DNA of 61,027 nucleotides, counting the filler. It is 8 parts of 8 records of this genome, joined end to end, with 100 filler letters (N's around TTAATTAATTAA, not from the genome) between each part and the next. Parts side by side here need not be neighbours in the genome. Positions count along the whole stretch, not along the records: positions 1 to 17,952 come from SRR31147125_76363; 7 more parts are not named here. One strand, given 5' to 3'. The notes under the pieces were generated by a model. It made no database searches. It had not been told where the DNA came from and worked only from the letters and a program-made list of their open reading frames with translations. The translations under genes were made by a program, and so were the position numbers. Shown one piece after another: positions 1 to 24,217 of the stretch (position 1 is its first letter; each line of letters begins with the position of its first letter).

Positions 1-195
1 AAAACAGAGCACAGAATCTTTATTAAGGATCTAAATCCTGGATTGTTTTCCAGGTGGAGAAAGAATGTATTAACTTACAAAATGAAACCCAATCCAGTTT
101 TACTGAGCCATTGAGTTTTTGGGAGCATGTTTCGGCATGACATAATAAATGGTTCTAATAGTGAACTGATTAGGGTCTTAACAATGGAGGTAGCA

Positions 196-3100
196 ATGAC
201 AAGTTCGAATCGGTACCTTAAACTGGTCTGTTTGGTAACTGCATTATTGCTGGCTATGTTTGCTCCGGATATGGGTGTCTGGGCAGGCACGACTGGCAAA
301 ATTTCCGGTGTAGTTGTTGATGCCAGTTCAGGTGAAGCGTTACCTGGCGCTAATGTTGTTATTGTTGGAAGTACTATGGGTGCTTCAACGAATATGGAGG
401 GGCAGTTCTTTATCTTAAATGTACCCCCTGGTGAATATTCTGTAAGATCCACAATGATGGGTTTTGCAACTACTGTACAACAAAAAGTACGCGTCACAGT
501 TGACAGAACTACAAAAGTGGATTTTAGCCTTTCATCCGCAGTTCTCGATATGGGACAGGAAGTTGTGGTCACAGCTTCACGTCCGCTTGTGGAAGCAGAT
601 GTTTCATCCACACAATCTATCACAACACCAGAGGCCGCGGAAAACATGCCCGTCAGTGATATTATGGATGCCGTTAGTCTGCAACCTGGTGTAAAAGTTA
701 CAAGCAATGAAATGAAGCTTGAGGTTCGCGGTGGTGAAAATGATGAAATCAGTTTTCAGGTAGATGGCATGGAGCGTAATGATAAGCTCAATGACAAGAT
801 TTACATGGTAACAAACTCCGCTTCTGTTGCTGAAATTCAGGTCCTCACAGGTGGTTTCAATGCCGAGTATGGTAATATTCGTTCCGGTCTTTTTAATGTT
901 ATCACCAAAGAAGGTGGTAAAAAGATTTCCGGTTCTGTAGATTACCGCATGGGTCCTGCCCATCAGAAACATTTTGGTCCGGATGCCTATGGTCAGGATC
1001 AATATGATTATCAGCTTTATGCCGGCTCAAACTCTTTTGATCCTGTCATGGATGTTGAGGGTAATCAAATGTTTGTTGGGTGGAACCAGATAGCTGAAAC
1101 TCAGAATGGTGCCTCTTTTATGGGAAAATCAGACTGGACACCTCAGGAATTACAGGAAGTCTGGAAATATCGTCATAGACCCATAGAGTACCATGAAAAT
1201 CCGGATCATTTTCTGGATGCTGGTATTGGTGGCCCATTGGCATTTTTAGATGCTATCGGACTGAAAGATGCCGGTTTTTTTGCAGGATACAAGTTTTCTC
1301 GTGAATACCCCATTCTGCCTTCTATAAGCGAATATTTTCAGAATGATGTAAAAGAATTAAAATTCAACTTTAAACCAACTCAGGCCATCAAAGTTGTATT
1401 GAGCGGTATGTACGGAAAGACCGCAACCAGCGCAGAGGGAGACCAATGGGAAGACACGGAATTTCGAATGGATTATGGTAATGACGTTGCCAAATCCGCA
1501 GTCGAAAGAGATAAATACTATTTAGCTGCAAACAATCTTTTGGATGTATGGAATAAACAGTTTGGCGCTAAAATTACCCATACTCTGAGTCCTTCAACAT
1601 ATTATGAAGTGAAATACAACCTTTTTTCAACAAACTCTGAAACAGGTAAATCTGCTGCCCGAAATACTGCAAATCAGAAACAGATCGGCGGCGTTTGGTT
1701 CGATGAAGCACCTATCGGATGGGTAGATGAAACGACTACATTTGCCGATTTTGCCGGTGTATATGACTTTTATGGCGGTGCCCTGGTTGAAGATACCTCC
1801 AAAGTCGTTAGTCAAAAGATCAATTTAGATCTGACCAGCCAGGTCAATAATAGTAACCTGGTCAAGGTCGGTTTTGAATTCGGCTCAGACCATCTCAAAC
1901 GTGATTACAAGAGACATAGTACAATCAACCTGGCTGGCGGCGATTTTTATAGTTTTGATCGTACTCCTGTTCATTACTCCGGATATATTCAGGACAAGAT
2001 TGAATATGGCGGCATGATTGCGAATCTTGGTTTACGTATCGATCATTATGATGCCAATGGATATATCTATGATCCTGACAATACTTATTCCATGCTTTAT
2101 TCTGTTGGTGGTACTGTCGGTTATGATAAGCCGGATGATATGCCCAAAGAAGCGAGCAAATCATATACGTATATCAGCCCAAGGATCGGTTTCTCTCATC
2201 CTGTGCGTAAAAACACGAAATTCTTTTTTAACTATGGTACTTTTTATTCTGAGCCAAGCAATGCACTCAGGTTTGGTTTGAAATCATCGAATTTCCCATT
2301 TGCTAACGCACAAGGTCATGTTGGCCGCATAGGAAATCCGAATCTGGAAGCACCAAGAACGTCCATGTACGAAATTGGTTTCGAGCAAAGCATTGCAAAT
2401 GTGTGGACCGTTCGTTCCAATTTTTACGCCAAAGATAATAGTGAGCTTGTTGGTCGCATAAGTGCAGAGGGCTTGTCTCGTGGATATACCGGCGGTCATT
2501 TTTTCAATTACATCGGCGGTGGCTCCGGAGCTTCCAGTTATAATACCAGAGTCAATAATCAATATTCTGATATTCGTGGAATCGAAATCAAAATTAACAA
2601 ACTCCGCGGTCGATATTTTACCGGTTGGATTAATATGGATTACCTGATTAAAGTGTCCGGCCAATATGGCGAACAAAAACTAAGTCAGGATCCCTTTATT
2701 GCTTACTATGCCTACAGCGCTGTCAAACAACAGCCACAAACGCAACCTTCTTTTATTGCCAATCTGGATTTCCATACTCCAAGCGATTGGGGAACGTTAA
2801 AAGGGGACTGGCGCCTCAGTGTTATCCAGAAATGGGAAGCAGGTTCAAAGTATATTTATAATCCAACAGGACTTCCAACACGTGAAGTCAGATCTATCTA
2901 TTATTGGGTTAATAATTACGTAACCAACCTGAGAATAAATAAAACATTTAGTGTCCTGGGTTCCAGAAGCCTCAGATTGTATATGGATATCAACAATCTC
3001 TTCAATTACCGAGATCTGAACCTGAATATTCTCGAAACAGCTGAAAAAGATCTCTATCTGACTCAGGTTATTGATGATGAAAACGGACTGGATAAGAAAA

Positions 3101-3255
3101 TTGGTGAATATAAAGATGATCAGGGAAACAATGTATTCACTGAAAACTGGATTGATGCAAATGGTTCGGAGAGAGCTCCTATTGCTCCTGCCAAGGATTT
3201 CGCCTTGTTTTACAATCCACGATCCGTTTTGTTTGGAATCAAATTTGTATTTTGA
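196..3255 (+). CDS. TonB-dependent receptor with N-terminal carboxypeptidase-regulatory-like domain (copy A)
   Basis: Signal peptide followed by GTTGKISGVVVD..GEALPGANV; plug motifs (VRGG..EISFQVDG; QVLTGGFNAEYGN); barrel motifs (YISPRIGFSHP, GNPNL); C-terminal aromatic OMP signature FGIKFVF. Start moved from 127 to ATG 196 (GGAGGtagcaATG), identical to the paralog start at 8815. Confidence 0.9.
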   Translation: MTSSNRYLKLVCLVTALLLAMFAPDMGVWAGTTGKISGVVVDASSGEALPGANVVIVGSTMGASTNMEGQFFILNVPPGEYSVRSTMMGFATTVQQKVRVTVDRTTKVDFSLSSAVLDMGQEVVVTASRPLVEADVSSTQSITTPEAAENMPVSDIMDAVSLQPGVKVTSNEMKLEVRGGENDEISFQVDGMERNDKLNDKIYMVTNSASVAEIQVLTGGFNAEYGNIRSGLFNVITKEGGKKISGSVDYRMGPAHQKHFGPDAYGQDQYDYQLYAGSNSFDPVMDVEGNQMFVGWNQIAETQNGASFMGKSDWTPQELQEVWKYRHRPIEYHENPDHFLDAGIGGPLAFLDAIGLKDAGFFAGYKFSREYPILPSISEYFQNDVKELKFNFKPTQAIKVVLSGMYGKTATSAEGDQWEDTEFRMDYGNDVAKSAVERDKYYLAANNLLDVWNKQFGAKITHTLSPSTYYEVKYNLFSTNSETGKSAARNTANQKQIGGVWFDEAPIGWVDETTTFADFAGVYDFYGGALVEDTSKVVSQKINLDLTSQVNNSNLVKVGFEFGSDHLKRDYKRHSTINLAGGDFYSFDRTPVHYSGYIQDKIEYGGMIANLGLRIDHYDANGYIYDPDNTYSMLYSVGGTVGYDKPDDMPKEASKSYTYISPRIGFSHPVRKNTKFFFNYGTFYSEPSNALRFGLKSSNFPFANAQGHVGRIGNPNLEAPRTSMYEIGFEQSIANVWTVRSNFYAKDNSELVGRISAEGLSRGYTGGHFFNYIGGGSGASSYNTRVNNQYSDIRGIEIKINKLRGRYFTGWINMDYLIKVSGQYGEQKLSQDPFIAYYAYSAVKQQPQTQPSFIANLDFHTPSDWGTLKGDWRLSVIQKWEAGSKYIYNPTGLPTREVRSIYYWVNNYVTNLRINKTFSVLGSRSLRLYMDINNLFNYRDLNLNILETAEKDLYLTQVIDDENGLDKKIGEYKDDQGNNVFTENWIDANGSERAPIAPAKDFALFYNPRSVLFGIKFVF

Positions 3256-3320
3256 TGTTCGTGATCCAATGATCTTAAATAGGTTAGTTGGTATACCAGA
3301 ATAAAAAGAGGAATTTGAAT

Positions 3321-5405
3321 ATGAAGCGAATTATAACAATTTTGAGCTTCTGCTTGCTGTTGCTGACTCTTCTCAGTAGTATCTCCTTTGCGAATACAGC
3401 CGAGGCGTATATGAGAATCGGTCGGTTATGGATGATTGCGGAATACGATGGTGCAGAAGGCTGGTCCGGTCAGTGCGCCTGGCCGGGTGGGCATGTTAGA
3501 TTTCCAAACGGGAATGCCCGCGAAATATGGGGAGCCAATATCAGAAAAATGGGTACCCTTGCTGGTGTTAAAGACTGGACAGGTCCTAATGGTGAATTTT
3601 ATCCTTACTGGACGTCCGGTATGTATCGTACCTATGATTATGACTATCTGGATTACTGGAAAGCACAAACCCATCAAACATCTGTTTATTGTGTTGATCA
3701 GATCTCTATACAGAGATGGGCTTCACCCAATGTTTATGTAAACGGAAATAATATCATTCCGGATGGTGGTGACAACTTTTTAGACGCTCACAATAATACA
3801 GAAATCGATCCTGATCTGGTTACAGAACGGGCGATCAAGTCTATCTGGAGATATAGTATGGGTGTTGAGTACACTCGTATGATGTACGCTTATAGTAACC
3901 GCAAACACCAGGATTATGTTTTGTGGGATATCAATTTAAAAAATAATGGTGCTGTTTACGCACGGTTGATAAATCCACCCGTGAGTTGGCCGTATCCGGA
4001 ATGGCCCACTATCCTGGAAGGTCAGAATCTCACAGGATTCTGGTGGAGTCAGACCGAAAATCCATGGAATTCCAGTCTCGGAAGATCCAAATCTTTTGGA
4101 GCGGATGATGCTGTTGGTGAATTCATCGCGCCTTTTGCTGATCAAGGTAATGATCGTCGCTTTTACCTGTTTTATGATGGTGATCATCAAAACGATGGCA
4201 CCAGTGACTGGGGTGATCCCAGTATCGATGAGAGATGGGTTGAGTTATTGTCACCAGCGTGGATTATTTGTGGTGCCTTGCATGCAGATAAAGGTGCTAA
4301 TGACACATCTGATGATCCTGCCCAGCCGAATAGTACTGTAATCCGCCATGAACGGGATTACGATTTGGGCAAAAAGGTCAAGACCATGGAAGATCAGTAT
4401 AACGCGATGTTTCAGGCAGGCGTACATTGGCCATTGGATACATCCCATCGTGATATTGATCCGAACATTACAAGACCGAGTGGTTACAACTGTTTTGGTC
4501 CTTATGATATGGCTTATAATGAGGATGTTAATATTACCTTTGTCTGGGCTGCCGGTGGTATCAGTGAAGCCCTGTGCCGCGAATATGGTAAAAAAGCCTG
4601 GGATGCTGGTTATGCCGGTCCTGTTATGGATGAAATTGAAACTTTACATAAAACCGGTCGTGATTCTGTTTTAAAAACTCTGGATTTAGCCGAGTGGAAT
4701 GTCAATGGAGAAAAAGGTGGTCATGCAAAATTTGATGTACCTGATGCTCCTCGTCCACCTGCCAATTTATGGGTGGCTGCTCAAGGTCCAAAGATTAAAA
4801 TCGAATGGTCAGATGAATCCAGAACTACTGCGGATTTTGACACTGATGTTAATGATTTTGCCGGTTACAGACTTTACAAAGCAATTGGGGCCAGAGATAG
4901 TGTTTATCATATGATCTATGATGGCACAGCCAATGAATACCTGGATGAAAATACAAGTCCTGGTCTGCAGTATTTCTATTACCTGGTTGCTTATGATGAT
5001 GGAACACAAAACTGGGAAGACCCAGGTGTTTCTCTGGAAAGTGGAAAATATTATTGCTGGACAGGATGGGCACCTGAAGGAGTAACTCCTACAGTCGCAC
5101 CTATTACCTCCGATGCTGCCATGGATGATATCCGCGTTGTACCAAATCCATATAGCGCGGCTGGTAAGACATTTCCTGGTGAGATGGACAAAATATTGTT
5201 TACAGGCTTGCCCGGAACATGTACTATTAAAATTTTCACCTCAAATGGTGATTATGTTCATACTATTGAACATACCGACGGTAGTGGAACGGAAGACTGG
5301 GATCTACGGACGGAATACAATCAATATCTTGTCAGTGATGTTTATGTTTACACAGTAGAAAGTGATTTGGGTGATACCGTTGGTAAATTTATCATCATTA
5401 GGTAA
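3321..5405 (+). CDS. Secreted protein with FN3-like domain and T9SS/FlgD-Ig-type C-terminal sorting domain (copy A)
   Basis: Sec signal ending SFA-NT; FN3-like segment (APRPP..IEWSD..FAGYRLYK..YYLVAYD); C-terminus IRVVPNPY..ILFTGLP..IKIFT..WDLR..GKFIIIR. Start at 3321 after AGAGGA. Confidence 0.8.
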   Translation: MKRIITILSFCLLLLTLLSSISFANTAEAYMRIGRLWMIAEYDGAEGWSGQCAWPGGHVRFPNGNAREIWGANIRKMGTLAGVKDWTGPNGEFYPYWTSGMYRTYDYDYLDYWKAQTHQTSVYCVDQISIQRWASPNVYVNGNNIIPDGGDNFLDAHNNTEIDPDLVTERAIKSIWRYSMGVEYTRMMYAYSNRKHQDYVLWDINLKNNGAVYARLINPPVSWPYPEWPTILEGQNLTGFWWSQTENPWNSSLGRSKSFGADDAVGEFIAPFADQGNDRRFYLFYDGDHQNDGTSDWGDPSIDERWVELLSPAWIICGALHADKGANDTSDDPAQPNSTVIRHERDYDLGKKVKTMEDQYNAMFQAGVHWPLDTSHRDIDPNITRPSGYNCFGPYDMAYNEDVNITFVWAAGGISEALCREYGKKAWDAGYAGPVMDEIETLHKTGRDSVLKTLDLAEWNVNGEKGGHAKFDVPDAPRPPANLWVAAQGPKIKIEWSDESRTTADFDTDVNDFAGYRLYKAIGARDSVYHMIYDGTANEYLDENTSPGLQYFYYLVAYDDGTQNWEDPGVSLESGKYYCWTGWAPEGVTPTVAPITSDAAMDDIRVVPNPYSAAGKTFPGEMDKILFTGLPGTCTIKIFTSNGDYVHTIEHTDGSGTEDWDLRTEYNQYLVSDVYVYTVESDLGDTVGKFIIIR

Positions 5406-5473
5406 GTATGTAGATTAAAGCGTTATTTTACGCTTTTTGTTTTCCTTAAAATGACAAAATGGAGACAATACTC

Positions 5474-6490
5474 ATGAAAAAAATGTGTTCCTTGTTTTTA
5501 ATATTAATGGTCTTTTTAGTCTCGCTGCCAGCATCTGCAGAGATGAAGAAGCTGGGCCAGGCTGGAATGACGTTTTTAGGTATCGGAGGTAGTGCCAGGG
5601 CTGCTGGTATGGCCGATGTCTTTGGCTTTGCCAAGAACGACCTTGGCTCGGTATTTTATAATCCGGCTGGTCTGGCTACCGTTGAAAATCGTGCGTTTTA
5701 TTTTAATTACACCGACTGGATTGCTGATATGAGTGTTTCAAATATCGCTGTCTCATTCGATGCAAATCAATTTGGTGTTTTTGCTTTAAACGCTACTGTT
5801 ATGGATTATGGTGACATCGATGGAACCAGTATATCTGAATCCGATCCAAGAGGATATTCAGATATTGATGTTGGCGATGTTGGTGGACTGGCTGTTGGTC
5901 TTGCTTATGGTATCCAGATGACTGACAAATTTGCTATTGGTGGTGGTGTAAAATATGTCCGGCAACAGCTGGGACAGAATGACACCTATATTGGTGGTGT
6001 TCTCGAAGAAACCGGAAAAGAGAATAGTGTAGGTACTGTAGCTTATGATTTTGGTACCATGTACGATACTGGTATCAAAAGCATTCGCCTGACCATGGCT
6101 ATCAGAAACTATGCCGCGCAGCAACTTTATGAAAATGAAGAGTTTCAGTTGCCGCAAACATATAAAATCGGTGTATCAGCCAATATGTTCGAGTTCCTGC
6201 CCTGGGGCTCAGCTGATGAAAACTCACTGGTTTTAGCTGTTGAAGGTGTTGATCCTCATGATCGTCCGGAATATGTAAATGCTGGTTTGGAATACTCACT
6301 TGCCAATCTCATCGATCTGAGAGCAGGTTATGCATTCCAGAGAGCAGATGACGAAACCGGTGGATTTAGCGCTGGTGCTGGCTTAAAACTGGATAATATT
6401 GGTTTTAATGGCCGTTTGGATGTTGCCTATGGTTCAATGGGAAGCGTTCTGTCAAACGTCATGCGCGTTTCCTTTACCGGATCCTTCTAA
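5474..6490 (+). CDS. PorV/PorQ-family (UPF0164-like) outer-membrane beta-barrel (copy A)
   Basis: Signal peptide; FLGIGGSARAAGM and VFYNPAGLA motifs typical of FadL/PorV-fold barrels; ends in Phe. Confidence 0.85.
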   Translation: MKKMCSLFLILMVFLVSLPASAEMKKLGQAGMTFLGIGGSARAAGMADVFGFAKNDLGSVFYNPAGLATVENRAFYFNYTDWIADMSVSNIAVSFDANQFGVFALNATVMDYGDIDGTSISESDPRGYSDIDVGDVGGLAVGLAYGIQMTDKFAIGGGVKYVRQQLGQNDTYIGGVLEETGKENSVGTVAYDFGTMYDTGIKSIRLTMAIRNYAAQQLYENEEFQLPQTYKIGVSANMFEFLPWGSADENSLVLAVEGVDPHDRPEYVNAGLEYSLANLIDLRAGYAFQRADDETGGFSAGAGLKLDNIGFNGRLDVAYGSMGSVLSNVMRVSFTGSF

Positions 6491-6540
6491 TTTGAACGAA
6501 ATACAAGTGTGTTAATATCTTAAGATATCAACAACTTTTA

Positions 6541-6585
6541 ATAAAAAACGTCTTGTGTGCGATTGCATGCAAGACGTTTTTTTAT
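6541..6585 (+). terminator. Rho-independent terminator after the PorV-like gene (copy A)
   Basis: AAAAAACGTCTTGTGTGC-gatt-GCATGCAAGACGTTTTTTT hairpin with U tract; near-identical copy at 15157. Confidence 0.85.
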
Positions 6586-6771
6586 GCCCCATCGCGCCAG
6601 CATTTTTTTTGAGATCTTCGTAATTGAATTTTCTACACATTCAGACTGAATGTGAAAGATCTTTACCTATTTTGATAAACGGTACGAGTTATATCTAAAA
6701 CGTGAAGCACATTTTTAATAAAAAAAGCAGCTAATAGCAAATGTTTGACCGAATATTTTATATAAAAAAAC

Positions 6772-6800
6772 TTGACATTATTAAAACTGTTATCTATCTT
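6772..6800 (+). promoter_or_regulatory. Sigma70-type promoter for the GWxTD gene
   Basis: TTGACA (6772-6777), 17-nt spacer, TATCTT (6795-6800). Confidence 0.65.
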
Positions 6801-6801
6801 T

Positions 6802-6815
6802 AGCAAACGATTGCA
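6802..6815. promoter_or_regulatory. LacI-family-like operator overlapping the predicted transcription start
   Basis: aGCAAACGATTGCa, an imperfect palindrome with central CG, immediately 3' of the -10 box. Confidence 0.55.
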
Positions 6816-6940
6816 TTATGAATATTAATATTTTAAATTCGTTACCAAAATTACTACCTAACATAGATATTGAACGGATTAATTTCTACCAATAACAGGG
6901 ATGTGAGATTTATTCTTGAATTTAACTATGGACCTGGTAT

Positions 6941-8314
6941 ATGGAACGGAAAAAGTGTGAAATAGTACTGTTTCTCACATTAATCTATTTTATTCATGGG
7001 TATTTATTTACAGCCAATTCTGCCCCACAAACCTTTCCAATGGAGAGTACTCTATCTCCGCGATTTTGGCTGGATTTGGGTGTTTTTCATCGAGAGGATA
7101 ATAAGGCTCAGGTTGAAGTTTATTATTCTGTCATTTTGAAAGAGCTTGCTTTTAATAAAGCACCTGAGGGGAATTTAGCGTCTTTTACCTTCACTGTAAG
7201 CATCAAAGATAGTGCAGATCAGATTGTTTATGAAGATCTGAGACAACGAAAAACACGTGCTTCGTCTCAGACTGAAATAGATGATGAATCGAAGGGAATT
7301 ATTGATCAATTTGTATTTGATCTGATCCCGGGTCTTTATAAACTTGAATGCCAATTGATGGATAATTTATCACAGGCAGCAAGTCAACTTGAAGGCACTT
7401 TTCGCGTACCTACTGTCACTTCACATCTCTCTGTCAGTGATCCTCAATTTGCCACAATTATCACTAAAGATTTATCCAACAAATTGTTTGTTAAAGGAAG
7501 CCGAACAATCTATCCGAAACCTTCCTGTATATATACACACAAAAAATCGTTACTCTATTTCTACTATGAAGTATACAATCTTGTTGTAAATGACGAGAGT
7601 ATACCTTTACAATTTCAGGTTAGTTATGCAATTACAGATCTGAAAGGTGATTCGCTGATAACTGTACCCGATCAGACTGTAAAGAAGCCTGGTACTTCAT
7701 GTATAAAAATGCAAGCCGTTGATATAAGAGGTTTGGAACCAGGCTTATATCGTCTAATCATAGATGTGCATGATCCCACGTCTGACCAAACAGCGTCAAC
7801 AAACAAAACCTTTTGGGTTCAGGAATCAAAACAGGATCAAGAAACCATTCCTATGACAAAAGAGGATATGAAAAAATACAGAGATCAAATTCAGTATTTA
7901 GCCTCAAATGAAGAATTAAAAATATTTGATAGTCTTACGCCTGAGGGAAAATCGTCTTTCCTGGTTAATTTCTGGCGTTCTAAAGATACGGATCCTTCAA
8001 CTCCGGAAAATGAATTTATGCTGGATTATTTCAGCCGCATTGAATATTCCAATAAACATTTTAAAGGAGTTAACGGTGGATTGAACACGGACATGGGCCG
8101 GGTATTCATCGTCTATGGCCAACCTGATGACATCGAAGACCATAATTGGGAAACTGGAATAGCCCCTTTTGTTATTTGGCGCTATTTCGCTCAGGGATGG
8201 AATCACAGTTTTGTATTTATTGACCGGAATCATGAAGGTATTTATACCCTGGTGCATTCAACTGTTGTGGGGGAGGTTAAAAATGAAGAATGGGCCGATT
8301 TAGAGGCACTGTAA
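6941..8314 (+). CDS. GWxTD domain-containing protein (intact copy)
   Basis: N-terminal hydrophobic segment, Ig-like beta-rich region, C-terminal FLVNFWRSKDTDPSTPENEFMLDYFSRIEYSN..F..GLNTDMGRVFIVYGQPDDIE. Confidence 0.85.
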   Translation: MERKKCEIVLFLTLIYFIHGYLFTANSAPQTFPMESTLSPRFWLDLGVFHREDNKAQVEVYYSVILKELAFNKAPEGNLASFTFTVSIKDSADQIVYEDLRQRKTRASSQTEIDDESKGIIDQFVFDLIPGLYKLECQLMDNLSQAASQLEGTFRVPTVTSHLSVSDPQFATIITKDLSNKLFVKGSRTIYPKPSCIYTHKKSLLYFYYEVYNLVVNDESIPLQFQVSYAITDLKGDSLITVPDQTVKKPGTSCIKMQAVDIRGLEPGLYRLIIDVHDPTSDQTASTNKTFWVQESKQDQETIPMTKEDMKKYRDQIQYLASNEELKIFDSLTPEGKSSFLVNFWRSKDTDPSTPENEFMLDYFSRIEYSNKHFKGVNGGLNTDMGRVFIVYGQPDDIEDHNWETGIAPFVIWRYFAQGWNHSFVFIDRNHEGIYTLVHSTVVGEVKNEEWADLEAL

Positions 8315-8507
8315 CTTCATTCAATATTAAATCAAACCAACTATTACCAATCTTTTATCAATAATATCAATATTAAAGAATCACTTTATAGCACTTTAAA
8401 ATTTATTGCAAAAACTAAACCGATACAGATGGCCTGTTTAGAATTTAGTGATATAGTTTAACCTGTTACTTAAAGATTATCTAAAGAATGTGTTGTTATT
8501 TCGAGTG

Positions 8508-8527
8508 TTATGTTAGTGTTAACATAA
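8508..8527. promoter_or_regulatory. Palindromic operator-like site upstream of TBDR copy B
   Basis: TTATGTTA-gtgt-TAACATAA, a perfect 8-4-8 inverted repeat resembling LacI-type TGTTAGCGCTAACA. Confidence 0.5.
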
Positions 8528-8534
8528 TTTATCT

Positions 8535-8606
8535 GAAAGGAGGTGAGCTATAAAAAATTTGCAATAATGTTGGATAACATGTTATAAAAAAAATGAGGAG
8601 GTGATG
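8535..8606 (+). promoter_or_regulatory. Tandem orphan Shine-Dalgarno motifs in the TBDR leader
   Basis: GAAAGGAGGTGA at 8535 and GAGGAGGTGATG at 8595, with no ORF longer than 14 codons following; the pattern recurs at 17752-17828. Confidence 0.55.
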
Positions 8607-8814
8607 ATTAAACACTTTTAAAAGGTCGAAACGTTTATTCGAAATCTCAAACCAAAGCCATGTTTTGAGATGAGGAGGAAAGAATATAATTTGAAGAATG
8701 TTACCCATTTAGTTATTTAGTAAGCTTTAACTCATTTACGAGAACCCATCTATGCTTTTTTCAGGATAGTTTTCTTAATGGTATACTACATGGGTTATAA
8801 AAACGGAGGTAGCA

Positions 8815-11800
8815 ATGACAAGTTCTAATCGGTACTTTAAACTGGTTTGTTTATTTGCTATAGTCTTGTTGGCCTTGTTTGTGCCGGAAATGGGAGTCCG
8901 GGCAGGCACGACTGGTAAGATTACAGGGGTTGTTCTTGATGCCGGATCGAACGAAGCACTACCCGGTGTCAATATTGTAATCGTTGGAACCACAATGGGT
9001 GCCTCAACAGATATGGAGGGTGGTTTTTTAATCCTCAATGTACCACCAGGAGAATATTCTCTCCGTGCAACAATGATGGGGTTTGGAGCTGTGGTACAAC
9101 AAGGTGTACGTGTGAACGTTGATAGAACCACCAATGTCGATTTTTCTTTATCTGCAGCTGTTCTTGATGTGGGTGAAGAAGTTGTCGTTACAGCGACCAG
9201 ACCTTTAGTGGAGAGAGATGTTCCTTCAAGTCAGATTGTAACGACAGCCGAACAAGCGGCAACTTTACCAGCATCTGAGTTCATCCAGACCGTTGCCCTG
9301 GAGCCTGGTGTTGAAATTGACAATCTGGAAGAGATTCGTATCCGTGGTGGTGGCAGCGACCAGATCAGTTTTCAGGTTGATGGCATGGAGCGTATGGACA
9401 GGCTCAATACCAGGGCCTATATTTCCATGAACTCTGCGGCCATAAGTGAAGTACAGATCCTCACTGGTGGTTTTAACGCAGAGTACGGTAATATCCGTTC
9501 CGGTATTTTTAACGTCATTACCAAAGAAGGTAGTCGACTTGTTTCTGGTGCGATAGATTATCGTTTTGGCCCGGCGCATCAAAAACATTTTGGTCCGGAA
9601 GCCTATGGTGATGATCAATACGATAATCTATTATATGGCACAGCCGCTGCCATGAATCCGGTCGTTGATGTAGAAGGTACACAGATTTGGCAAGGATGGA
9701 ATGCCAGAACAGATGCATTAAATAGTGCCAACTATATGGGCAAAAATGATTGGACTCCCCAAGAAATCCAGGATGTCTGGAGATGGCAAACTCGAGGTGT
9801 TGATTATACTGATCAAGGTGATCATTATTTAGACGCCGGAGTTGGCGGTCCCCTTAAATTTCTGGAAGGTCTTGGCCTAAAGGATGCAGGCTATTTTGTC
9901 GGATATAAATATACTCGTACAAGCCCGATTTTTCCAGTGCTGAGTAATGTTTATCAATCTGATGCAAAAGAATTTAAAATGAGCTTTAAACCTCATCATG
10001 CCATCAAGGTTGTACTTAACGGTCTTTATGGCAAGACAGAAACAACGACCAGTGGTAACTCATGGAATCCAAGTGGGTTGGATATGGCTGTTGTTCATGA
10101 AGGTGGAAATGAAGTTGGTAATGAAGGTATTACCGGACAGAATAAATACTATCAGTACACTGATTGTTTACTTGATGTATGGAATAAACAGATTGGTGCC
10201 AAAATGACCCATACCTTGAGTCCTTCCACCTATTATGAAGTAAAATATAACAGATTCTGGACTGACTCTGAGGCTGGGCGTGGTCGATCCCGCAGTAACC
10301 AAACCTATCAAATTAAAACAATTGGTGGGGTGGCCTTTGACGAAGCACCGCTTGGCTGGCTTGATGAAGGAAGTAAATTTTTGGATCTGACCGGTAATTA
10401 TCTGCTGGGCGGAGGCGGAAGAGTTAAGGATACTTCCAATGTTGTCACGCAGAAAATTAACTTTGATATTACCAGCCAGGTAAACAAAAATAATCTGATC
10501 AAAGCTGGTTTTGAATATGAAGTGAGTGATCTGGAACGTAATTATGCCCGTATTGAAGAAGAGCAATTACTTTATGGTGAATATGTCGCCTATAGCGAAA
10601 AACCAACAAGATATGCCGCCTATATTCAGGACAAGCTGGAGTATGGTGGTATGATCGCCAATATTGGTCTTCGTATTGATCATTTTGCTTCAAACGGTGT
10701 CATATTTGAACCGGATAATATTTATTCTGCTCTCTTCAAAAGAGGTGGCTCAAACGGTATGACATCAGTCGATGACATTCCCCAGGAAGATGCCGAATCC
10801 TATACCTATATTTCTCCACGTATCGGATTTTCACACCCAGTTCGTCAAAATACCAAATTCTTCTTTAATTATGGTATGTTCTATTCCGAACCTTCTAACG
10901 GCACGCGATATGGGCTTTATAATGAGCACAGAAACTTTGGTGATCCTATGGCCGATATTCGCTGGGTAGGTTACGCAAATCTGAAACCACCGCGAACGTC
11001 GATGTACGAAGTTGGATTTGAACAAAGTATTAGCAATGCTTATACAGTACGCGCCAGTTTCTATGCCAAAGATAACGAAGAGCAAATTTCCAACATCACT
11101 GTAAAAGGTTTGGCTGGAGGTCATAATACTGGTACATTCCTGATGGCAACAACAACTTCAGGTGCTGCAAGCTACAATACTCCTCGTAATAATGAATATG
11201 AGGACATTCGTGGTATTGAACTTAAGGTTCACAAACTTCGTGGTCGTTTTGTAACCGGTTTCATGAATTTAGACTATAATATCAGTACAAAAGGAAATTA
11301 TGGTGAACAGAGACTGAATCAGGATCCATTGGTTGGATACTACATTTTTTCCGCTCAGCAGGATAGACCGGAACCGGAACCCAAGTTTGTCGGAAATGTA
11401 GATTTCCATACGCCAGGTGATTGGGGCGCCATTAAAGGAGATTGGCGACTTAGTTTCATTCAGCGTTGGAATATGGGTAAAAAAGTCATCTATAATCCGA
11501 ACAACCTGCCAACTCGCGATGTCAGAACCCAATACTATTGGGTGGATTATTACACAACAAATTTACGTCTCACAAAAACAATCACTGTTGCGAAAACGAG
11601 ACTGAATTTATACATGGACGTAAATAATCTATTTAATTTCAAATATTTGAACTGGGCCGCCCTGAACAGTGATGAACGGGAAACCTATATCAACCAGGTT
11701 GTGGATGGAACAAATGGTCTTGGCAATGACATTGGTGATTACAAGGACGCTAATGGCAATGATGTATTTACTGAAAACTGGGTTGATAAAAGCGGCACCA

Positions 11801-11886
11801 ATAGAGCCCCAATCGCACCGACAAAAGATTTTGCTTTGTTCTTAAATCCGAGATCAGTCTTGTTGGGTGTTAAATTAGAGTTCTAA
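8815..11886 (+). CDS. TonB-dependent receptor (copy B)
   Basis: Aligns end to end with 196-3255; same plug and barrel motifs; ends LGVKLEF. Confidence 0.9.
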   Translation: MTSSNRYFKLVCLFAIVLLALFVPEMGVRAGTTGKITGVVLDAGSNEALPGVNIVIVGTTMGASTDMEGGFLILNVPPGEYSLRATMMGFGAVVQQGVRVNVDRTTNVDFSLSAAVLDVGEEVVVTATRPLVERDVPSSQIVTTAEQAATLPASEFIQTVALEPGVEIDNLEEIRIRGGGSDQISFQVDGMERMDRLNTRAYISMNSAAISEVQILTGGFNAEYGNIRSGIFNVITKEGSRLVSGAIDYRFGPAHQKHFGPEAYGDDQYDNLLYGTAAAMNPVVDVEGTQIWQGWNARTDALNSANYMGKNDWTPQEIQDVWRWQTRGVDYTDQGDHYLDAGVGGPLKFLEGLGLKDAGYFVGYKYTRTSPIFPVLSNVYQSDAKEFKMSFKPHHAIKVVLNGLYGKTETTTSGNSWNPSGLDMAVVHEGGNEVGNEGITGQNKYYQYTDCLLDVWNKQIGAKMTHTLSPSTYYEVKYNRFWTDSEAGRGRSRSNQTYQIKTIGGVAFDEAPLGWLDEGSKFLDLTGNYLLGGGGRVKDTSNVVTQKINFDITSQVNKNNLIKAGFEYEVSDLERNYARIEEEQLLYGEYVAYSEKPTRYAAYIQDKLEYGGMIANIGLRIDHFASNGVIFEPDNIYSALFKRGGSNGMTSVDDIPQEDAESYTYISPRIGFSHPVRQNTKFFFNYGMFYSEPSNGTRYGLYNEHRNFGDPMADIRWVGYANLKPPRTSMYEVGFEQSISNAYTVRASFYAKDNEEQISNITVKGLAGGHNTGTFLMATTTSGAASYNTPRNNEYEDIRGIELKVHKLRGRFVTGFMNLDYNISTKGNYGEQRLNQDPLVGYYIFSAQQDRPEPEPKFVGNVDFHTPGDWGAIKGDWRLSFIQRWNMGKKVIYNPNNLPTRDVRTQYYWVDYYTTNLRLTKTITVAKTRLNLYMDVNNLFNFKYLNWAALNSDERETYINQVVDGTNGLGNDIGDYKDANGNDVFTENWVDKSGTNRAPIAPTKDFALFLNPRSVLLGVKLEF

Positions 11887-11949
11887 TTTACCTGATTTTA
11901 TAACACCATGTCGGTTCAAATTATGATAAATAACAGGAGGAAGTTTAAT

Positions 11950-14010
11950 ATGAAGCGTATATTAATCATAACGGGGCTTTTTATCCTACTGGTAGCCTCG
12001 GTGTGGAATATGGCTTTCGCAAACACATCCGAAAACTTTATGAGAATCGGTAGGTTGTGGATGGTCTATGAATATGATGGTGCCGAGGGTTGGAGCAGTC
12101 AAGCTGCGTGGCCCGGAGGTTATCCCATTTCTGCTTTTAGTGGTATCAAAGAACTCTGGGACGGCAACATGAGAAAATTGGGAACGGTAGCCGGTTGTAA
12201 AGACTGGACCGGACCTAATGGCGTTTCCTACCCATACTGGACCTCCGGAATGTACCGGACCTATCATTATGAATATCTTACATATTGGATGCCCTGGGAA
12301 GATATGACGCAAAATTTCCCTGTTTCACAAAAAGAAATCCAGCGATGGACTCCGCCAAACGTCTATGTCGATGGTGTCAATATCATTGCTGACGGTGGAG
12401 ATAATTATCTGGAAGTTCACAATAATGCTGAAATTGATCCTAATCTGATCACAGAAAGATGTGTCGAGTCTGTGTGGGATTATAGTATGGGTGTCACCTA
12501 TACGCGTAGAGCTTATGGTTATAGCTCTAAAAAACATCAGGATTATAACTTGTGGGATGTCAATTTTAAAAATACCGGTCGTATTGACCAGACTCCCGAA
12601 TCCGATATTTTGAAGAATCAGACCATTAAGGATTTTTTCTGGGCTCAAACAGGAAATCCATGGAACTCTCATGCCGGTCGAAGTTATTCTTATGGTAACG
12701 GCAAGGATGATGAAGTTGGTGAGTTTGTTAAACCCTTTGATGATGACCGACGATTCTATCTGTTCTATGATGGTGATAATCCGGATTCTCCGCTTTCGGA
12801 CTGGGCAGACCCAAGTAATGATCCAAGATGGATCCGGTTGTTATCCCCGGCATGGATCATGTATGGTGCCTTACATGCTGATAAAAGTGCCAGCGATCCT
12901 TCACAGGACCTTACACAACCCAAGTCTACTTTTATAGGACACGAACGGAATTATGATTTGGGTAAAGTGCCTAAAACCATGCAGGAACAGTATGAATTCC
13001 TGTTTGAAAAAGGTGGTGAATATATTGATTGGCCACTAAATACACCACATCGTGAAATAGATGCCGCTATTAAAAGACCGAGCGGATATACCAGTTACGG
13101 GCCATATACAATGGCGCCTGGCGAAGATTTCAATCTGGTTTTTGTCTTTGCTGCCGGTGGTATCAGTATGGATGAATGTATTCGTTTGGGCAAAGAGGTA
13201 CAGAAAACAGAAGCCACTGGTGCGATTATGGATGAAGTTGAAACCGTATTCAAAACCGGAAGAGATTCTGTAATGAAAACAATGCAACTTGCTGAATGGA
13301 ATGTGAATGGCAGTAAGCCAGGCGGCAGGGGCAAATTTGATGTTCCTGATGCACCACGTCCCCCAGCCAATTTCTGGGTTCAAGCTGACGGTCCTAAAAT
13401 CGTTATTGAATGGAGTGATGAATCTGAACAAGAAGCAGATTTTGATACTGGTAATAATGATTTTGCCGGTTACCGGTTGTACAAAGCTATTGGAGCACGG
13501 GACAGCAGTTATAGCGTTATTTATGAAGGTACGGATCATCAATTTGTTGATACAAATGTCAGCTCTGGTACCCAATACTATTACTACCTGGTTGCTTATG
13601 ATACAGGAACGGAAAACTGGGAAGATGCCGGTGTGTCTTTGGAAAGCGGTCGCTATTATTGCTGGACCGGATGGGCTCCTGAGGGTGTAACACCGAAAAT
13701 AGCACCCATTTCCAGTGCTTCTGAATTGGAAAAGATTCGAGTAGTTCCGAATCCTTATAGTGCTGCGGGTAAAACTTTTGCAGGTGAAGCGGATAAAATT
13801 CTATTTACCGGATTGCCTGGCGAATGTACGATAGAAATATATTCTTCCGGAGGCAATTATGTTCACAAAATTGAACATACGAATGGAAGCGCTAATGAGG
13901 CCTGGGATCTGCGTACAGAATTCAACCAATACCTTGTCAGTGACGTGTATATTTACACTGTTACAAGTGACTTAGGTGAGCATGTTGGTAAATTCATTGT
14001 CGTTAGATAA
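11950..14010 (+). CDS. Secreted FN3/T9SS-CTD protein (copy B)
   Basis: Paralog of 3321-5405 (MRIGRLW..EYDGAEGWS; IRVVPNPYSAAGKTF..GKFIVVR); RBS AGGAGG. Confidence 0.8.
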   Translation: MKRILIITGLFILLVASVWNMAFANTSENFMRIGRLWMVYEYDGAEGWSSQAAWPGGYPISAFSGIKELWDGNMRKLGTVAGCKDWTGPNGVSYPYWTSGMYRTYHYEYLTYWMPWEDMTQNFPVSQKEIQRWTPPNVYVDGVNIIADGGDNYLEVHNNAEIDPNLITERCVESVWDYSMGVTYTRRAYGYSSKKHQDYNLWDVNFKNTGRIDQTPESDILKNQTIKDFFWAQTGNPWNSHAGRSYSYGNGKDDEVGEFVKPFDDDRRFYLFYDGDNPDSPLSDWADPSNDPRWIRLLSPAWIMYGALHADKSASDPSQDLTQPKSTFIGHERNYDLGKVPKTMQEQYEFLFEKGGEYIDWPLNTPHREIDAAIKRPSGYTSYGPYTMAPGEDFNLVFVFAAGGISMDECIRLGKEVQKTEATGAIMDEVETVFKTGRDSVMKTMQLAEWNVNGSKPGGRGKFDVPDAPRPPANFWVQADGPKIVIEWSDESEQEADFDTGNNDFAGYRLYKAIGARDSSYSVIYEGTDHQFVDTNVSSGTQYYYYLVAYDTGTENWEDAGVSLESGRYYCWTGWAPEGVTPKIAPISSASELEKIRVVPNPYSAAGKTFAGEADKILFTGLPGECTIEIYSSGGNYVHKIEHTNGSANEAWDLRTEFNQYLVSDVYIYTVTSDLGEHVGKFIVVR

Positions 14011-14080
14011 TCAGGTAGATCGAGGCGCTTTATCCGCGCTGTACGTTCTCCTTCAAATGATCAAAATGGAGGCAATACTC

Positions 14081-15094
14081 ATGAAAAAAATCTGGATTTT
14101 ATCTTTAATATTTATATTTATGGCCTCATTACCCTCTAACGCCGCTATGAAAAAGTTAGGTCAGGCTGGTATGACTTTTCTGACTATCGGTGGTAGTGCC
14201 AGAGCCACAGGTATGTCCGATGCATTTGGTTTTGCTAAAGGTGATTTGGCTAGTGTGTTTTATAACCCGGCAGGTTTGGCATCTGTTAACGGACGCGCTT
14301 TCCTGTTTAATTATACCAGTTGGGTAGCGGACATGAATGTAACCAATTTTGCCGCTTCCTATAATGCAAATTCTTGGGGTGTTTTCGCCCTGAATGCTCA
14401 GGTTATGGATTACGGTGATTTTGTCGGTACTGTTGTCGATGATACTGATCCAAAAGGTTATCAGGACGCTGATGTTGGTGATGTTGGTGGATTGTCCATT
14501 GGTTTATCATATGGATACCAAATGACCGATAAATTTGCTATCGGTGGTACCGCAAAATATGTTAATCAAAAGCTGGGCAATAATGACACCTATTCAGCCG
14601 GTGCCCTGGATGAGGCCGGTCATTTAAACAAAACCGACTGTTTTGCATTCGACTTTGGTACTCTTTATGATACGGGTATCAGAAGTCTGGCCGTACATAT
14701 GTCTATCCGCAATTATTCCGGTCAGCAGCTATATGAGAACGAAGAATTCCAGTTGCCACAGACATACAGAATCGGATTCTCGGCAAATATGTTTGAATTA
14801 CTGCCATTCTTGCCAAGTGCCGGAAATTCTCTTCTTCTTGATATCGAAGGTGTGGCTGCCCGCGATCGGGATGAATATCTTAATTTGGGCCTGGAATATT
14901 CCCTGATTGATATGCTTGATCTACGCGGTGGTTTTGCTTTTGAGCGTGCTCAAGATGGCACCGGTGGATTATCATTAGGTACGGGCCTAAAGCTGGATTC
15001 TCTTGGCTTTGGCGGACGTCTGGATGTTTCCTATAATGATTTTGGTAGCGTATTAGGTTCTGTTATGCGCGTATCCATTCAGGGTTCATTCTAG
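14081..15094 (+). CDS. PorV/PorQ-family beta-barrel (copy B)
   Basis: Paralog of 5474-6490 (MKKLGQAGMTFL.IGGSARA, VFYNPAGLA); start after GGAGG. Confidence 0.85.
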   Translation: MKKIWILSLIFIFMASLPSNAAMKKLGQAGMTFLTIGGSARATGMSDAFGFAKGDLASVFYNPAGLASVNGRAFLFNYTSWVADMNVTNFAASYNANSWGVFALNAQVMDYGDFVGTVVDDTDPKGYQDADVGDVGGLSIGLSYGYQMTDKFAIGGTAKYVNQKLGNNDTYSAGALDEAGHLNKTDCFAFDFGTLYDTGIRSLAVHMSIRNYSGQQLYENEEFQLPQTYRIGFSANMFELLPFLPSAGNSLLLDIEGVAARDRDEYLNLGLEYSLIDMLDLRGGFAFERAQDGTGGLSLGTGLKLDSLGFGGRLDVSYNDFGSVLGSVMRVSIQGSF

Positions 15095-15156
15095 CACATT
15101 CTGGTATTCGTGATGAGTTGTCATTGATATGAAAATCCTGATGGCAACATAATGAA

Positions 15157-15203
15157 ATAAAAAACGTCTTGTGTGCATAAAATAGCATACAAGACGTTTT
15201 TAT
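15157..15203 (+). terminator. Rho-independent terminator (copy B)
   Basis: AAAAAACGTCTTGTGTGC-loop-GCATACAAGACGTTTTT; same stem as 6541 with a different loop. Confidence 0.85.
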
Positions 15204-15522
15204 TTTAGGGGAATGAATAACAAAGAATCCACTGTTAACATATATACAATATGAGCTAAGGTTACCCTATGAAGTGCGTTGATAGAACCTTGTTCTCAAA
15301 AAAATCACATCATTGCTTAAAATCCAATAGTATTAGCCCTAATCATATACTTGATTAATTGAAAAGTTAATTACTCCAAAAGCCCCGCTTGAACGCAGAC
15401 AAACCGTTTCATCATGTGATGATATTTAAGCAAAAATGAATATAAATAAAATGCTCATTTGTAAAAATAGCATGTAGCATTTAGTGTGTTAAAAATTATT
15501 TTATTTATAAGGCATAATATAA

Positions 15523-15972
15523 ATGAAGAGTTTTTATGTTTCAGGCGGTGCCGTATGTTTGATTATTTTATCTTGTCTTTCAGAGAATAGAATAGAGCAA
15601 CCATCGGTTATTTCTATCGAAAAGTACCTCATTGGTTCATGGGGAAACGAACGACAAGATGTCCTGGGAGAAGCGGCCATTTACACTCTTCAAGAGAGGG
15701 TGATATTTAATGAGGAAAAGAATTGGTCCTCTGAGATGTTGTGGTTACGTGAAGAAAAACAAGTAGGAAAGGATGTTGAAAAGGGCACATATTGGCTAAC
15801 AGCCGATACCTTGTTTCGATTGGTACAATCTTCAACCATAACCTGGTCCGGTGGTGAAGTTAAGGAAGATTTTATTGTAAGTTGTAATATGGATTCACTA
15901 TGTCTTGCGCGAATTTCAATAAAAAATGATTCAACCTATTTGAAGCCAGTTATTCACTACTTGAGGTTATAG
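15523..15972 (+). CDS. Putative lipoprotein, lipocalin-like
   Basis: Lipobox-like IILSC; LIGSW and GTYW..DTL motifs reminiscent of lipocalin-like domains. Confidence 0.55.
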   Translation: MKSFYVSGGAVCLIILSCLSENRIEQPSVISIEKYLIGSWGNERQDVLGEAAIYTLQERVIFNEEKNWSSEMLWLREEKQVGKDVEKGTYWLTADTLFRLVQSSTITWSGGEVKEDFIVSCNMDSLCLARISIKNDSTYLKPVIHYLRL

Positions 15973-16085
15973 TTGTAACGTATTTATTAGCAAGGAACAC
16001 AAATATGAGCGGATAAAATTCGTTATTATTGAAAGAGTATACGGCTTTTAAAAAATAACTTTTAAATTTTATACTAAAAAATGAC

Positions 16086-16114
16086 TTGACAAATATATAA
16101 GGTTTAACTAATTT
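16086..16114 (+). promoter_or_regulatory. Sigma70-type promoter for the second GWxTD gene
   Basis: TTGACA-17nt-TAATTT, positionally equivalent to the promoter at 6772. Confidence 0.5.
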
Positions 16115-16377
16115 TATTTAGAAATACATACATTATTGATGATTGAATCATATAGTATGTTTTCCCATACCGTTGCGATCCCTACATAACAGCGAAATAT
16201 CCTATCACACTTTCCTTTAGGCTACCACTCCGTATTCCTTTGTTGTAGAATTAGTCTGTAATAAGTAATCCTCCGAAAGAATTTCTGCAGTTAAAAATCA
16301 CAACTTGTTAGGCCATTAATCAGATTGAAAAATTATACATCTCGTTTAATTTTTTATAATTCAGGAAATGGCTTAAA

Positions 16378-17746
16378 ATGATACCAGAACTAAAAAACAA
16401 AATTATTTCCACGGCAATTATTTTTATTTGTGGATTTTCTTTTATTGTTTATGCTCCGTCACACTCATTTCCAGATCAAAGTGTTACGAATCCTTATTTT
16501 TGGATAGACGTGGGGATTTTTCAAAGAAGTGAGCAACAAGCCTTGATTGAATTTTATTATTCTTTTTCTTTGAATGAACTCTCTTTTGATAATATGTCCG
16601 GGGAAATCCTTGCATCTTTTTCTTTTTCAATTTCTATTAAGGATTCCGCAAATAAAACTGTTTTTACAGAATCGAGAAATAGAAGAGCACGTGCTGCATC
16701 ACAGGCGGATGTCAGTGATAAGAGCAAAGGGATTATCGATCTATTTACCTTTAACCTGAAGCAAGGAGACTATTCATTTGAATGTGAATTAACAGATAAA
16801 AGTACAAAAGCAACGAGCAAGATTAGCGGTTCCTTCACTGTTCCTCCATTTATTGGCCAACTTTGCATAAGTGAACTGCAAATGGCCTCACTCATCTCCT
16901 CAGACTTGTCGAATACTCTATTTGTCAAAGGAAATCGTTTGGTCATCCCAAAACCCTCACGTCGATACAAATGCCATCATTCCCTTCTTTATCTTTATTA
17001 TGAAGTTTATAATCTTGTTACAGGTAATGATTCAAGCAAGATCTTATTCCAGGTTAGCTATTCAATCACAGATTTGGATAACAATAAACTCCTTGAGGTG
17101 CCTGTGAAATCCATAAATAAACCCGGTACCTCCTGTATTAAAATGCAAGCTTTTGATATTCGTGGGTTTGAACCCGGAGAGTATATCCTCAACATTAAAG
17201 CTTTTGATCCTGCTTCGGGTCAATCCGCTTTTAAACAGAAAACATTCGATCTATGAGCCAGAACAAGATACCATGCTTTTAGCGATGACCAGCGAGGATA
17301 TTCAGAATTATCGCGATCAGATCAAATATCTTGCCACAAAGGAAGAACTGGAACTATTTGATGATCTCGCTTCGGAAGGTAAAGAGAAATTTTTAATCAA
17401 TTTTTGGCGCTCAAGAGATCCTGAACCAGAGACTCCTGAAAATCAATTCATGTTAGATTATTTTAGTCGAATAGATTATGCTAATAAGCATTTTAAAGGT
17501 AAAGCTAAAGGTATGAATACAGATATGGGACGAGTTTTTATTATGTATGGTCAGCCCGATGACATTGAAGATCATATTTGGGAAATGGGGAAAAAACCTT
17601 ATGCTATTTGGCATTATTTCGCTGCTGGCCGAAGACACGATTTTGTTTTTGTCGACAGGAACAATGAAGGTATTTATACATTAGTGCATTCAACAGTGGA
17701 GGAAGAGATTAAGAACGAAAATTGGATGCAGCAAGAAATAAACTAA
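16378..17746 (+). pseudogene. GWxTD domain protein, second copy, frameshifted at about 17248 (ORFs 16378-17256 and 17153-17746)
   Basis: Both halves align to 6941-8314. The junction reads ACA TTC G ATC TAT GAG where the paralog has T-F-W-V, consistent with a 2-nt loss. It could be real or an assembly error. Confidence 0.7.
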
Positions 17747-17751
17747 ATTTA

Positions 17752-17828
17752 GAAAGGAGGTGATAAACTGGAAAAATTTTGTTTTAAAAATTATTAATGC
17801 AAACATGACATTCATAAAGGAGGTGATG
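17752..17828 (+). promoter_or_regulatory. Tandem orphan Shine-Dalgarno motifs (second occurrence)
   Basis: GAAAGGAGGTGAT at 17752 and AAAGGAGGTGATG at 17816; no long ORF before the contig ends. Confidence 0.55.
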
Positions 17829-17952
17829 TACAGCAAAATAACAGAGTGAAAAAAAATAATGTCAACTTTATATGGTAAATTTTCAAGGGAAGGAATTTAA
17901 GGTTTTAAAGACTTTTTCAAGCATGGTTTCAGATTCCAAAGTGACTTTTATT

Positions 17953-18052
17953 NNNNNNNNNNNNNNNNNNNNNNNNNNNNNNNNNNNNNNNNNNNNTTAA
18001 TTAATTAANNNNNNNNNNNNNNNNNNNNNNNNNNNNNNNNNNNNNNNNNNNN
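17953..18052. other. Artificial contig spacer
   Basis: N44-TTAATTAATTAA-N44, with stops in all six frames. Confidence 0.99.
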
Positions 18053-24117: not shown

Positions 24118-24217
24118 NNNNNNNNNNNNNNNNNNNNNNNNNNNNNNNNNNNNNNNNNNNNTTAATTAATTAANNNNNNNNNNNNNNNNNNNNNNNNNNN
24201 NNNNNNNNNNNNNNNNN
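24118..24217. other. Artificial contig spacer
   Basis: N44-TTAATTAATTAA-N44. Confidence 0.99.

Follow-up and report, generated by a model that had tools for sequence, protein, structure and literature searches.

Paired orphan Shine–Dalgarno motifs in the intergenic leaders of tandem TonB-dependent-receptor-like cassettes: candidate sites for non-initiating 30S docking

Two tandem cassettes and their leaders

The window, by which we mean the whole stretch of 61,027 nucleotides that was analysed, consists of eight contigs joined by seven N44-TTAATTAATTAA-N44 linkers; these are separate contigs of a draft bin, and neighbourhood across a linker carries no meaning. Among sequencing runs, the DNA was traced to a marine sediment metagenome and to no RNA run, and the lineage is uncultured and probably belongs to the FCB group. 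The ORF list and Pfam searches revealed two tandem cassettes on the first contig, each with genes for a TonB-dependent-receptor-like protein (TBDR), a 700-aa protein, a PorV-like protein and a GWxTD protein (Table 1). Paralogues in cassettes A and B share 59, 63, 66 and 50–64% protein identity, and the duplication is therefore old. In cassette B the GWxTD gene falls into two frames, 16378–17256 and 17153–17746 on the plus strand, the halves being 50% and 64% identical to the GWxTD protein of cassette A; the split comes from a frameshift, from pseudogene formation or from faulty assembly. A literature search on GWxTD found no paper. Elsewhere in the window, the gene at 24980–26197 (plus strand) encodes a B12-binding radical SAM protein that matches TIGR04072 (lipid biosynthesis, 'ladder' family; 569 bits against a cut-off of 360 bits) and adjoins glycosyl- and acyltransferase genes.

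Table 1. Positions of cassettes, leaders, motif sites and linkers in the window.
Feature	Position	Strand	Description
Leader A, partial	1–126	+	Last 126 nt before TBDR A; homologous to leader B 8628–8726
Cassette A	127–8314	+	TonB-dependent-receptor-like protein with CarboxypepD_reg and Plug domains, 1042 aa; 705-aa protein without family; PorV-like; GWxTD
Leader B	8315–8814	+	500-nt AT-rich spacer from the stop of GWxTD_A (8314) to the start of TBDR B (8815)
Hairpin	8508–8527	+	Perfect 8-bp AT-rich TTATGTTA-GTGT-TAACATAA, 8 nt 5' of the first motif; present in the MFE fold
Orphan site A1	8536–8546	+	AAAGGAGGTGA; duplex −16.8 kcal/mol, rank 4 of 120,462; best ORF from a start within 14 nt, 14 aa
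Orphan site A2	8594–8606	+	TGAGGAGGTGATG, ATG abutting the motif; duplex −18.1 kcal/mol, rank 1; best ORF 6 aa
Third purine-rich SD-like block	8671–8684	+	GAGGAGGAAAGAAT; partly kept in leader A as GGTGGAGAAAGAAT, about 50–63; inside the A/B alignment
Sigma-70-like promoter match	8758–8787	+	TTTTCA-18-TATACT with TG extension; 3' of the orphan sites and 5' of the TBDR B start
Real RBS of TBDR B	8805–8817	+	GGAGGT, 4-nt spacer, ATG at 8815; duplex −10.9 kcal/mol; N-terminus signal-peptide-like
Cassette B	8815–17746	+	Same set as cassette A plus a 149-aa ORF; GWxTD gene in two overlapping frames
Leader C, partial	17747–17952	+	Spacer after the second GWxTD frame; ends with the contig
Orphan site C1	17753–17764	+	AAAGGAGGTGAT, begins 7 nt past the stop codon; duplex −17.8 kcal/mol
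Orphan site C2	17816–17828	+	AAAGGAGGTGATG; duplex −17.8 kcal/mol; best ORF 8 aa
Linkers	17953–18052, 24118–24217, 29468–29567, 35120–35219, 44200–44299, 49622–49721, 55830–55929		

A preliminary description of this DNA had reported the motif AGGAGGTGA twice, 58 nt apart, more than 200 nt upstream of TBDR B, and twice again, 63 nt apart, directly after the second GWxTD stop, with flanks shared by the two sites. Exact matching and reading of the flanks agreed with each of these statements. AGGAGGTGA occurs four times in the window, always on the plus strand (8538–8546, 8596–8604, 17755–17763 and 17818–17826), with start-to-start distances of 58 nt in the first pair and 63 nt in the second. Shuffled versions of the window are expected to contain 0.26 matches, and none of 100 shuffles reached four. 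The TBDR B start comes 211 nt after the second motif of leader B, the two motifs spanning 211–277 nt before it, while the second pair starts 9 nt past the GWxTD stop at 17746. Three of the four copies read as the longer AAAGGAGGTGA. At both sites the first motif is followed by an A-rich AAAAA(A)TTT stretch (AAAAATTT) and has an AAnnTTTG element on its 3' side, and AACATG is found just 5' of the second motif, which reads GGAGGTGATG. A third AGGAGG is located at 8673, in the same spacer as the first pair.

Local alignment placed window positions 13–108 against 8628–8726, with a score reached by 3 of 300 shuffles, and positions 17747–17828 against 8527–8606, across both motifs, with a score reached by 10 of 300. 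Judged by these alignments, spacers A, B and C are paralogous leaders, of which A and C are truncated. The motifs and their spacing are kept between leaders B and C, and the intervening sequence has diverged apart from short blocks. Leader A starts at the window edge, so that any orphan pair there would precede position 1. The second pair is 125 nt from the end of the first contig, and its downstream gene is unseen because the contig ends at 17952. The first pair lies ahead of TBDR B; the spacer with the second cannot be called a TBDR leader from a contig that stops 125 nt further on. In run X1, the probable source sample, single contigs depart from the window sequence immediately past 8338 and immediately ahead of 8563, and the stretch with the first motif may be strain-variable or an assembly junction. 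Contig pieces from X1 and X2 (marine sediment metagenome) were short and of low depth, and none bridged the contig end at 17952.

Complementarity to the 16S rRNA tail, coding potential and structure

Duplex energies with the 16S tail AUCACCUCCUU were predicted for each 13-mer on both strands of the window (n = 120,462). The four motif sites took ranks 1–4, at −16.8 to −18.1 kcal/mol, the next best 13-mer being at −15.3. Real gene starts in the window were weaker (best −11.8, dnaN −11.4 and TBDR B −10.9 kcal/mol), so that the predicted pairing of the motif sites exceeds that of any real start by 5–7 kcal/mol; a Shine–Dalgarno (SD) sequence was absent from most genes checked, indicating sparse SD use. 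Each motif site is complementary to the free 16S 3' tail over 10–12 nt. The 16S gene ends GGATCACCTCCTT in three of four related genomes searched; the fourth, the Latescibacterota genome G211 described below, gave no match, and its 16S gene is probably missing from the assembly. The tail read in these three genomes and the four top-ranking duplex energies uphold the earlier identification of the motif as an extended complement of the 16S 3' end. Predicted accessibility of the four motifs was moderate, with a mean unpaired probability of 0.26–0.68.

Conservation of the motif follows the same complementarity. Eight of the nine orphan sites read in the window and G211 extend as GGTGAT, continuing the 16S complement, compared with none of eight real G211 start sites read; one further real G211 site reads GGAGGTGAA. 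Two variants have AGGGGG, in which pairing with CCUCC would be kept through G·U. The GGTGAT extension together with the G·U-compatible variants fits recognition between an RNA and rRNA.

Coding potential around the motifs is slight. No open frame of 60 aa or more was found in leader B on either strand, and the best ORFs starting within 14 nt of the motifs have 6–29 aa, none of them conserved. At the second motif, the tiny frame of the first pair is ATG ATT AAA CAC TTT TAA (MIKHF) and that of the second pair ATG TAC AGC AAA ATA ACA GAG TGA (MYSKITE). On both strands, the open frames running across the motifs are in another register at one site than at the other, with no ORF conserved, in keeping with the earlier statement that the only ORFs are tiny and unconserved, with their ATG abutting the motif. 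No functional start codon or conserved small ORF was found at a working distance from the motifs, and neither rpsU nor any other gene lies directly 3' of them.

Searches for a known or shared RNA structure were negative. Rfam gave no match at the gathering threshold in the whole window, only two snoRNA chance matches at 8200–8900 with E up to 10, and, at seven related loci, only tRNA matches and a sub-threshold Plastid-ycf2 match overlapping a tRNA on the opposite strand. The leaders fold no better than shuffles (z = −1.23 and +0.83). Across four pair modules there were no consensus base pairs and no sequence common to the stretches between the motifs; the modules have only the two motifs and their distance in common. 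RNAalifold analysis of three G211 segments proposed pairing of UUUCC with the real SD, which was weak (−6.4 kcal/mol) and without covariation. A small RNA carrying an anti-SD on the minus strand was considered and rejected: on the minus strand the hairpin is not followed by a T-run, and there is no promoter or terminator match near the motifs.

Recurrence of the design in related genomes

A search of the phylum Latescibacterota (168 genomes) identified G211, a metagenome-assembled genome with at least four homologous cassettes. Identity between G211 and the window is 42–55% for the TBDRs, 31–46% for the 700-aa protein and 32–50% for the PorV-like protein; the MnmG of the window is 50% identical to that of G211 and 51% to that of G002, and G211 is not close kin. 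Three G211 TBDR leaders are alignable over about 400 nt. Each has an orphan A(A)GGAGGTGAT, in one copy AGGGGGTGAT, about 66–70 nt upstream of the real site AAGGAGGgtataaaaGGTG, giving the orphan consensus A(A)GGRGGTGAT. The real site is far closer to the orphan motif in these leaders than in the window, where it follows the second motif by 211 nt. In five other genomes of the phylum, an orphan AAAGGAGGT is found about 55 nt before the weaker real site of a TBDR that is 32% identical to that of the window. Recurrence of the motif upstream of homologous TBDRs was accordingly seen, in the form of similar orphan sites in the G211 leaders.

The conserved G211 TBDR leaders have features of their own. 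The conservation of about 400 nt (L135 3454–3898, L134 6106–6550 and L127 3469–3913, minus; also L136) takes in a CTTGACA promoter-like box, a hairpin with GGAGG in its loop, a terminator-like hairpin with a T-run and, after it, the orphan SD. The hairpin stem is GUGAGC/GCUCAU in G211 but GUGUGG/CCACAU in G239, and the difference may be compensatory. The leader has no Rfam match and is a candidate attenuator or small RNA on its sequence features.

Pairs also occur ahead of other genes. At G211:C52, AAGGAGGTGATG and AAGGGGGTGATAG lie 63 nt apart, right after the stop of a PorV-like gene; about 105 nt further on is the real start of a gene whose product has a signal-peptide-like N-terminus. At G211:C42, AAAGGGGGTGAT and AAGGGGGTGAT are spaced 64 nt apart; a CTTGACA box lies upstream of them, and another gene with a signal-peptide-like product begins about 125 nt further on. 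In G229 the motifs of a pair are spaced by 61 nt, and an ORF with a signal-peptide-like start follows 65 nt later, while G233 has one orphan and one real site. In G211 the pattern GGAGGTGAT-N40-75-AGGAGG matched eight times, against once for the reversed control, and GGRGGTGA-N40-62-GGRGGTGA four times, against none. In six of the eight matches to the former pattern the second motif is the real start site of a protein whose N-terminus, by eye, resembles a signal peptide (two TBDRs and four others), and in the other two no ORF lies behind it. The paired or orphan design precedes several genes for probably exported or outer-membrane proteins in the related lineage. Because G211 has the same design ahead of other probably exported proteins, the design, judged by these gene neighbourhoods, is not TBDR-specific. 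The comparative support consists of few loci, in G211, G229 and G233, none of them close kin.

Wider counts serve as background. Matches to motif pairs were found in 103 and 93 of the 168 genomes of the phylum, mostly in GC-rich coding sequence, and 23 of 31 sampled pairs lie inside long open frames and look like chance; the phylum-wide counts are unfit as an enrichment test because most pairs fall in coding sequence. A scan of species genomes with GWxTD_A found only four distant loci; over long matches their identity was at most 29%, and a motif pair was present in none of them. Among the 201 genomes in the phylum of G001, two of which are flagged as unpublished and bear none of the claims made here, no TBDR match exceeded 41% identity, so that close kin are lacking there. 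Scanning of metagenome contigs for AGGAGGTGA-N40-65-AGGAGGTGATG returned at least 115 stretches, comprising coding repeats, small genes and one unrelated recurrent element, and among the matches listed no cassette homologue lies beside the pattern, so that they are background only.

Several other observations were made in the course of these searches. The recurrent element is a near-identical 68-nt sequence with two AGGAGGTGATG 48 nt apart around an inverted repeat, found in many unrelated metagenome contigs (L009, L012, L021, L025, L030, L044, L074, L090, L093, L100 and L114) and unrelated to the cassettes. In G001 (L001 4001–5327 and G001:C9:109622–111466) the GWxTD-like match is not covered by any ORF of at least 100 aa, and one in-frame TAG interrupts the MnmG match; the locus has 38% G+C although the genome is labelled Gemmatimonadales, and recoding, decay or misassembly is possible. 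L172, L173 and L175 (from G220, G222 and G224) contain palindromic intergenic repeats, GGGGGTGA...TTCCCCCTCT...AGAGGGGGTTAGGGGGTGA, with two copies about 480 nt apart in G220; this family looks like a REP-type element distinct from the orphan SD pairs.

Interpretation and comparison with known systems

Several explanations of the motifs were weighed. They may be genuine ribosome-binding sites for very short upstream frames (MIKHF, MYSKITE, start-stop frames or frames with non-canonical starts) whose translation would control the downstream gene or shield the leader from Rho; an ATG directly follows two of the four window motifs, an ATG-TGA start-stop stands behind the G211:C442 orphan, and frames of 6–29 aa can be drawn behind every motif. 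However, the ATG begins 2 nt past GGAGG, too close for normal initiation, no ATG is present at the other two window motifs or at the G211 C431 and C162 orphans, and peptide sequence, length and frame differ between sites, which makes this explanation unlikely. That the motifs are functionless relics, either start sites of decayed small genes or sequences copied along with the cassette, would agree with the tandem duplication of the cassettes and with the split GWxTD_B, a sign that some decay or sequencing error is present. Yet four 9–11-mers have stayed exact despite 50–66% protein identity and a largely unalignable spacer, and the same design recurs in distant genomes; we regard relics as rather improbable.

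Two further alternatives invoke a different binding partner. CsrA is known to bridge two sites, and a CsrA/Rsm-type dimer across two GGA-containing sites at a fixed distance, or else a small RNA with a CCUCC seed, could be the trans-acting factor; dual-site CsrA/RsmA leaders likewise have two spaced GGA-containing sites. But CsrA (PF02599) was found in none of four related genomes, in three of which the control profiles matched, so that the CsrA alternative raised in the preliminary description lacks its protein in these four. Unlike in the CsrA/RsmA leaders, the motifs are not presented by hairpins: they lie outside hairpin loops and share no common structure. Their conservation covers GGTGAT, which tracks the 16S tail and not the CsrA consensus, and a small RNA would need to copy the 16S tail, so that a factor of this kind is very unlikely. 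The repeats might instead act as DNA, as operator or promoter-proximal sites of a transcription factor, given that they are intergenic direct repeats about six helical turns apart with an AAnnTTTG element after the first motif at both window sites. Against this, spacings of 58, 61, 63, 64 and 66–70 nt lose helical phase, the motif invariably has the same orientation as the downstream gene, its A-to-G variants that preserve G·U make sense for RNA only, and it is an exact complement of the 16S tail over 10–12 nt. A role as DNA is accordingly hardly to be expected.

We tentatively favour the reading of the motifs as non-initiating, very high-affinity 30S docking sites (upstream SD sites) in untranslated inter-cassette leaders, although our confidence in it is limited. 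A cis-acting 30S-binding RNA element fits because the motifs are orphan, complementary to 16S rRNA, present in paralogous leaders and recurrent upstream of homologous TBDRs. A 30S subunit would dock at each motif through pairing with the 16S tail, without a start codon, and the two sites, 58–64 nt apart, would each hold one 30S, side by side. The spacing is close to the length of mRNA that a 30S initiation complex covers, and two subunits could therefore sit adjacent. Docked subunits may raise the local ribosome supply for the weaker real start downstream, as in standby or upstream-RBS models, and/or protect the extended untranslated leader, or a 5' end left by processing, against nucleases in a STAB-SD-like manner. 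The leader region would then be the 5' UTR of the downstream gene, with the orphans carried on the TBDR B mRNA; a promoter-like match intervenes, however, and if it is the sole promoter, the orphans belong instead to the 3' region that follows cassette A. The promoter scan of the region gave four sigma-70-like matches against 3.4 expected, weak evidence either way. The original proposal of a cis-regulatory leader for stabilization or standby on the TBDR operon mRNA is thus retained in part: the sites are orphan, 16S-complementary and recurrent, but they are not TBDR-specific and a promoter-like match intervenes. A more elaborate version, argued by analogy, is distinctly improbable: a tandem super-SD platform for envelope and secreted mRNAs, in a lineage of otherwise sparse SD use, that would capture only ribosomes with a free anti-SD, such as the bS21-less ones in Flavobacteria, and couple synthesis of outer-membrane proteins to the ribosome pool, the spacing being set by two adjacent 30S subunits.

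To our knowledge, experimental proof of upstream non-initiating 30S sites is confined to a few model bacteria, as the STAB-SD in Bacillus and recently as upstream RBSs (uRBSs) in E. coli. Docking sites of this kind are already known; the paired geometry, the 10–12-nt complement, the lineage and the link to envelope genes are new. If the docking interpretation is true, selection maintains sites of this type in a marine-sediment lineage without cultured members, where they stand upstream of genes whose products are abundant in the envelope. The repetition of AAGGRGGTGAT at about 60 nt without an ORF is a signature that can be searched for in other phyla, and a warning for annotation follows, namely that genes do not begin at the strongest SD motifs of such genomes.

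Known systems offer partial parallels. According to one report, the extended SD of rpsU in Bacteroidota has a pairing energy below −13 kcal/mol and is read by ribosomes lacking bS21 (PMC9976891). It resembles the present sites as an exceptionally strong SD in a lineage with mostly weak or absent SDs, and it offers a way in which such an SD could pick out a subset of ribosomes. It precedes the real start of one gene, whereas the sites described here precede none and sit in leaders of envelope-protein genes. The STAB-SD of Bacillus thuringiensis cry3A, attributed to Agaisse and Lereclus (1996) in a secondary source, is more than 100 nt from the start codon and is thought to hold a 30S subunit (PMC4113751). 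Like the motifs analysed here, as predicted, it is a 16S-complementary, SD-like sequence that does not direct initiation; it differs as a single site at a processed 5' end that blocks RNase J1, compared with paired sites here. RNase J (TIGR00649) had no match above the cut-off in any of four related genomes, and the literal STAB-SD mechanism is weakened because of this.

By analogy, the closest match is to the upstream SD sites revealed by 30S-seq in E. coli, followed by the STAB-SD. According to that study, E. coli has upstream RBSs with a strong SD and no start codon, one example being at skp, a gene for an envelope protein; at focA −213 a conserved strong SD binds 30S without initiator tRNA, and mutation of the motif changes expression about 10-fold (10.1101/2025.04.04.647229). 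The sites of E. coli differ from our putative ones in that ours form pairs 58–64 nt apart with a 10–12-nt 16S complement in a lineage of sparse SD use. What the two have in common is a strong SD more than 100 nt upstream in an untranslated region, a presumed one in our case, with no functional start codon.
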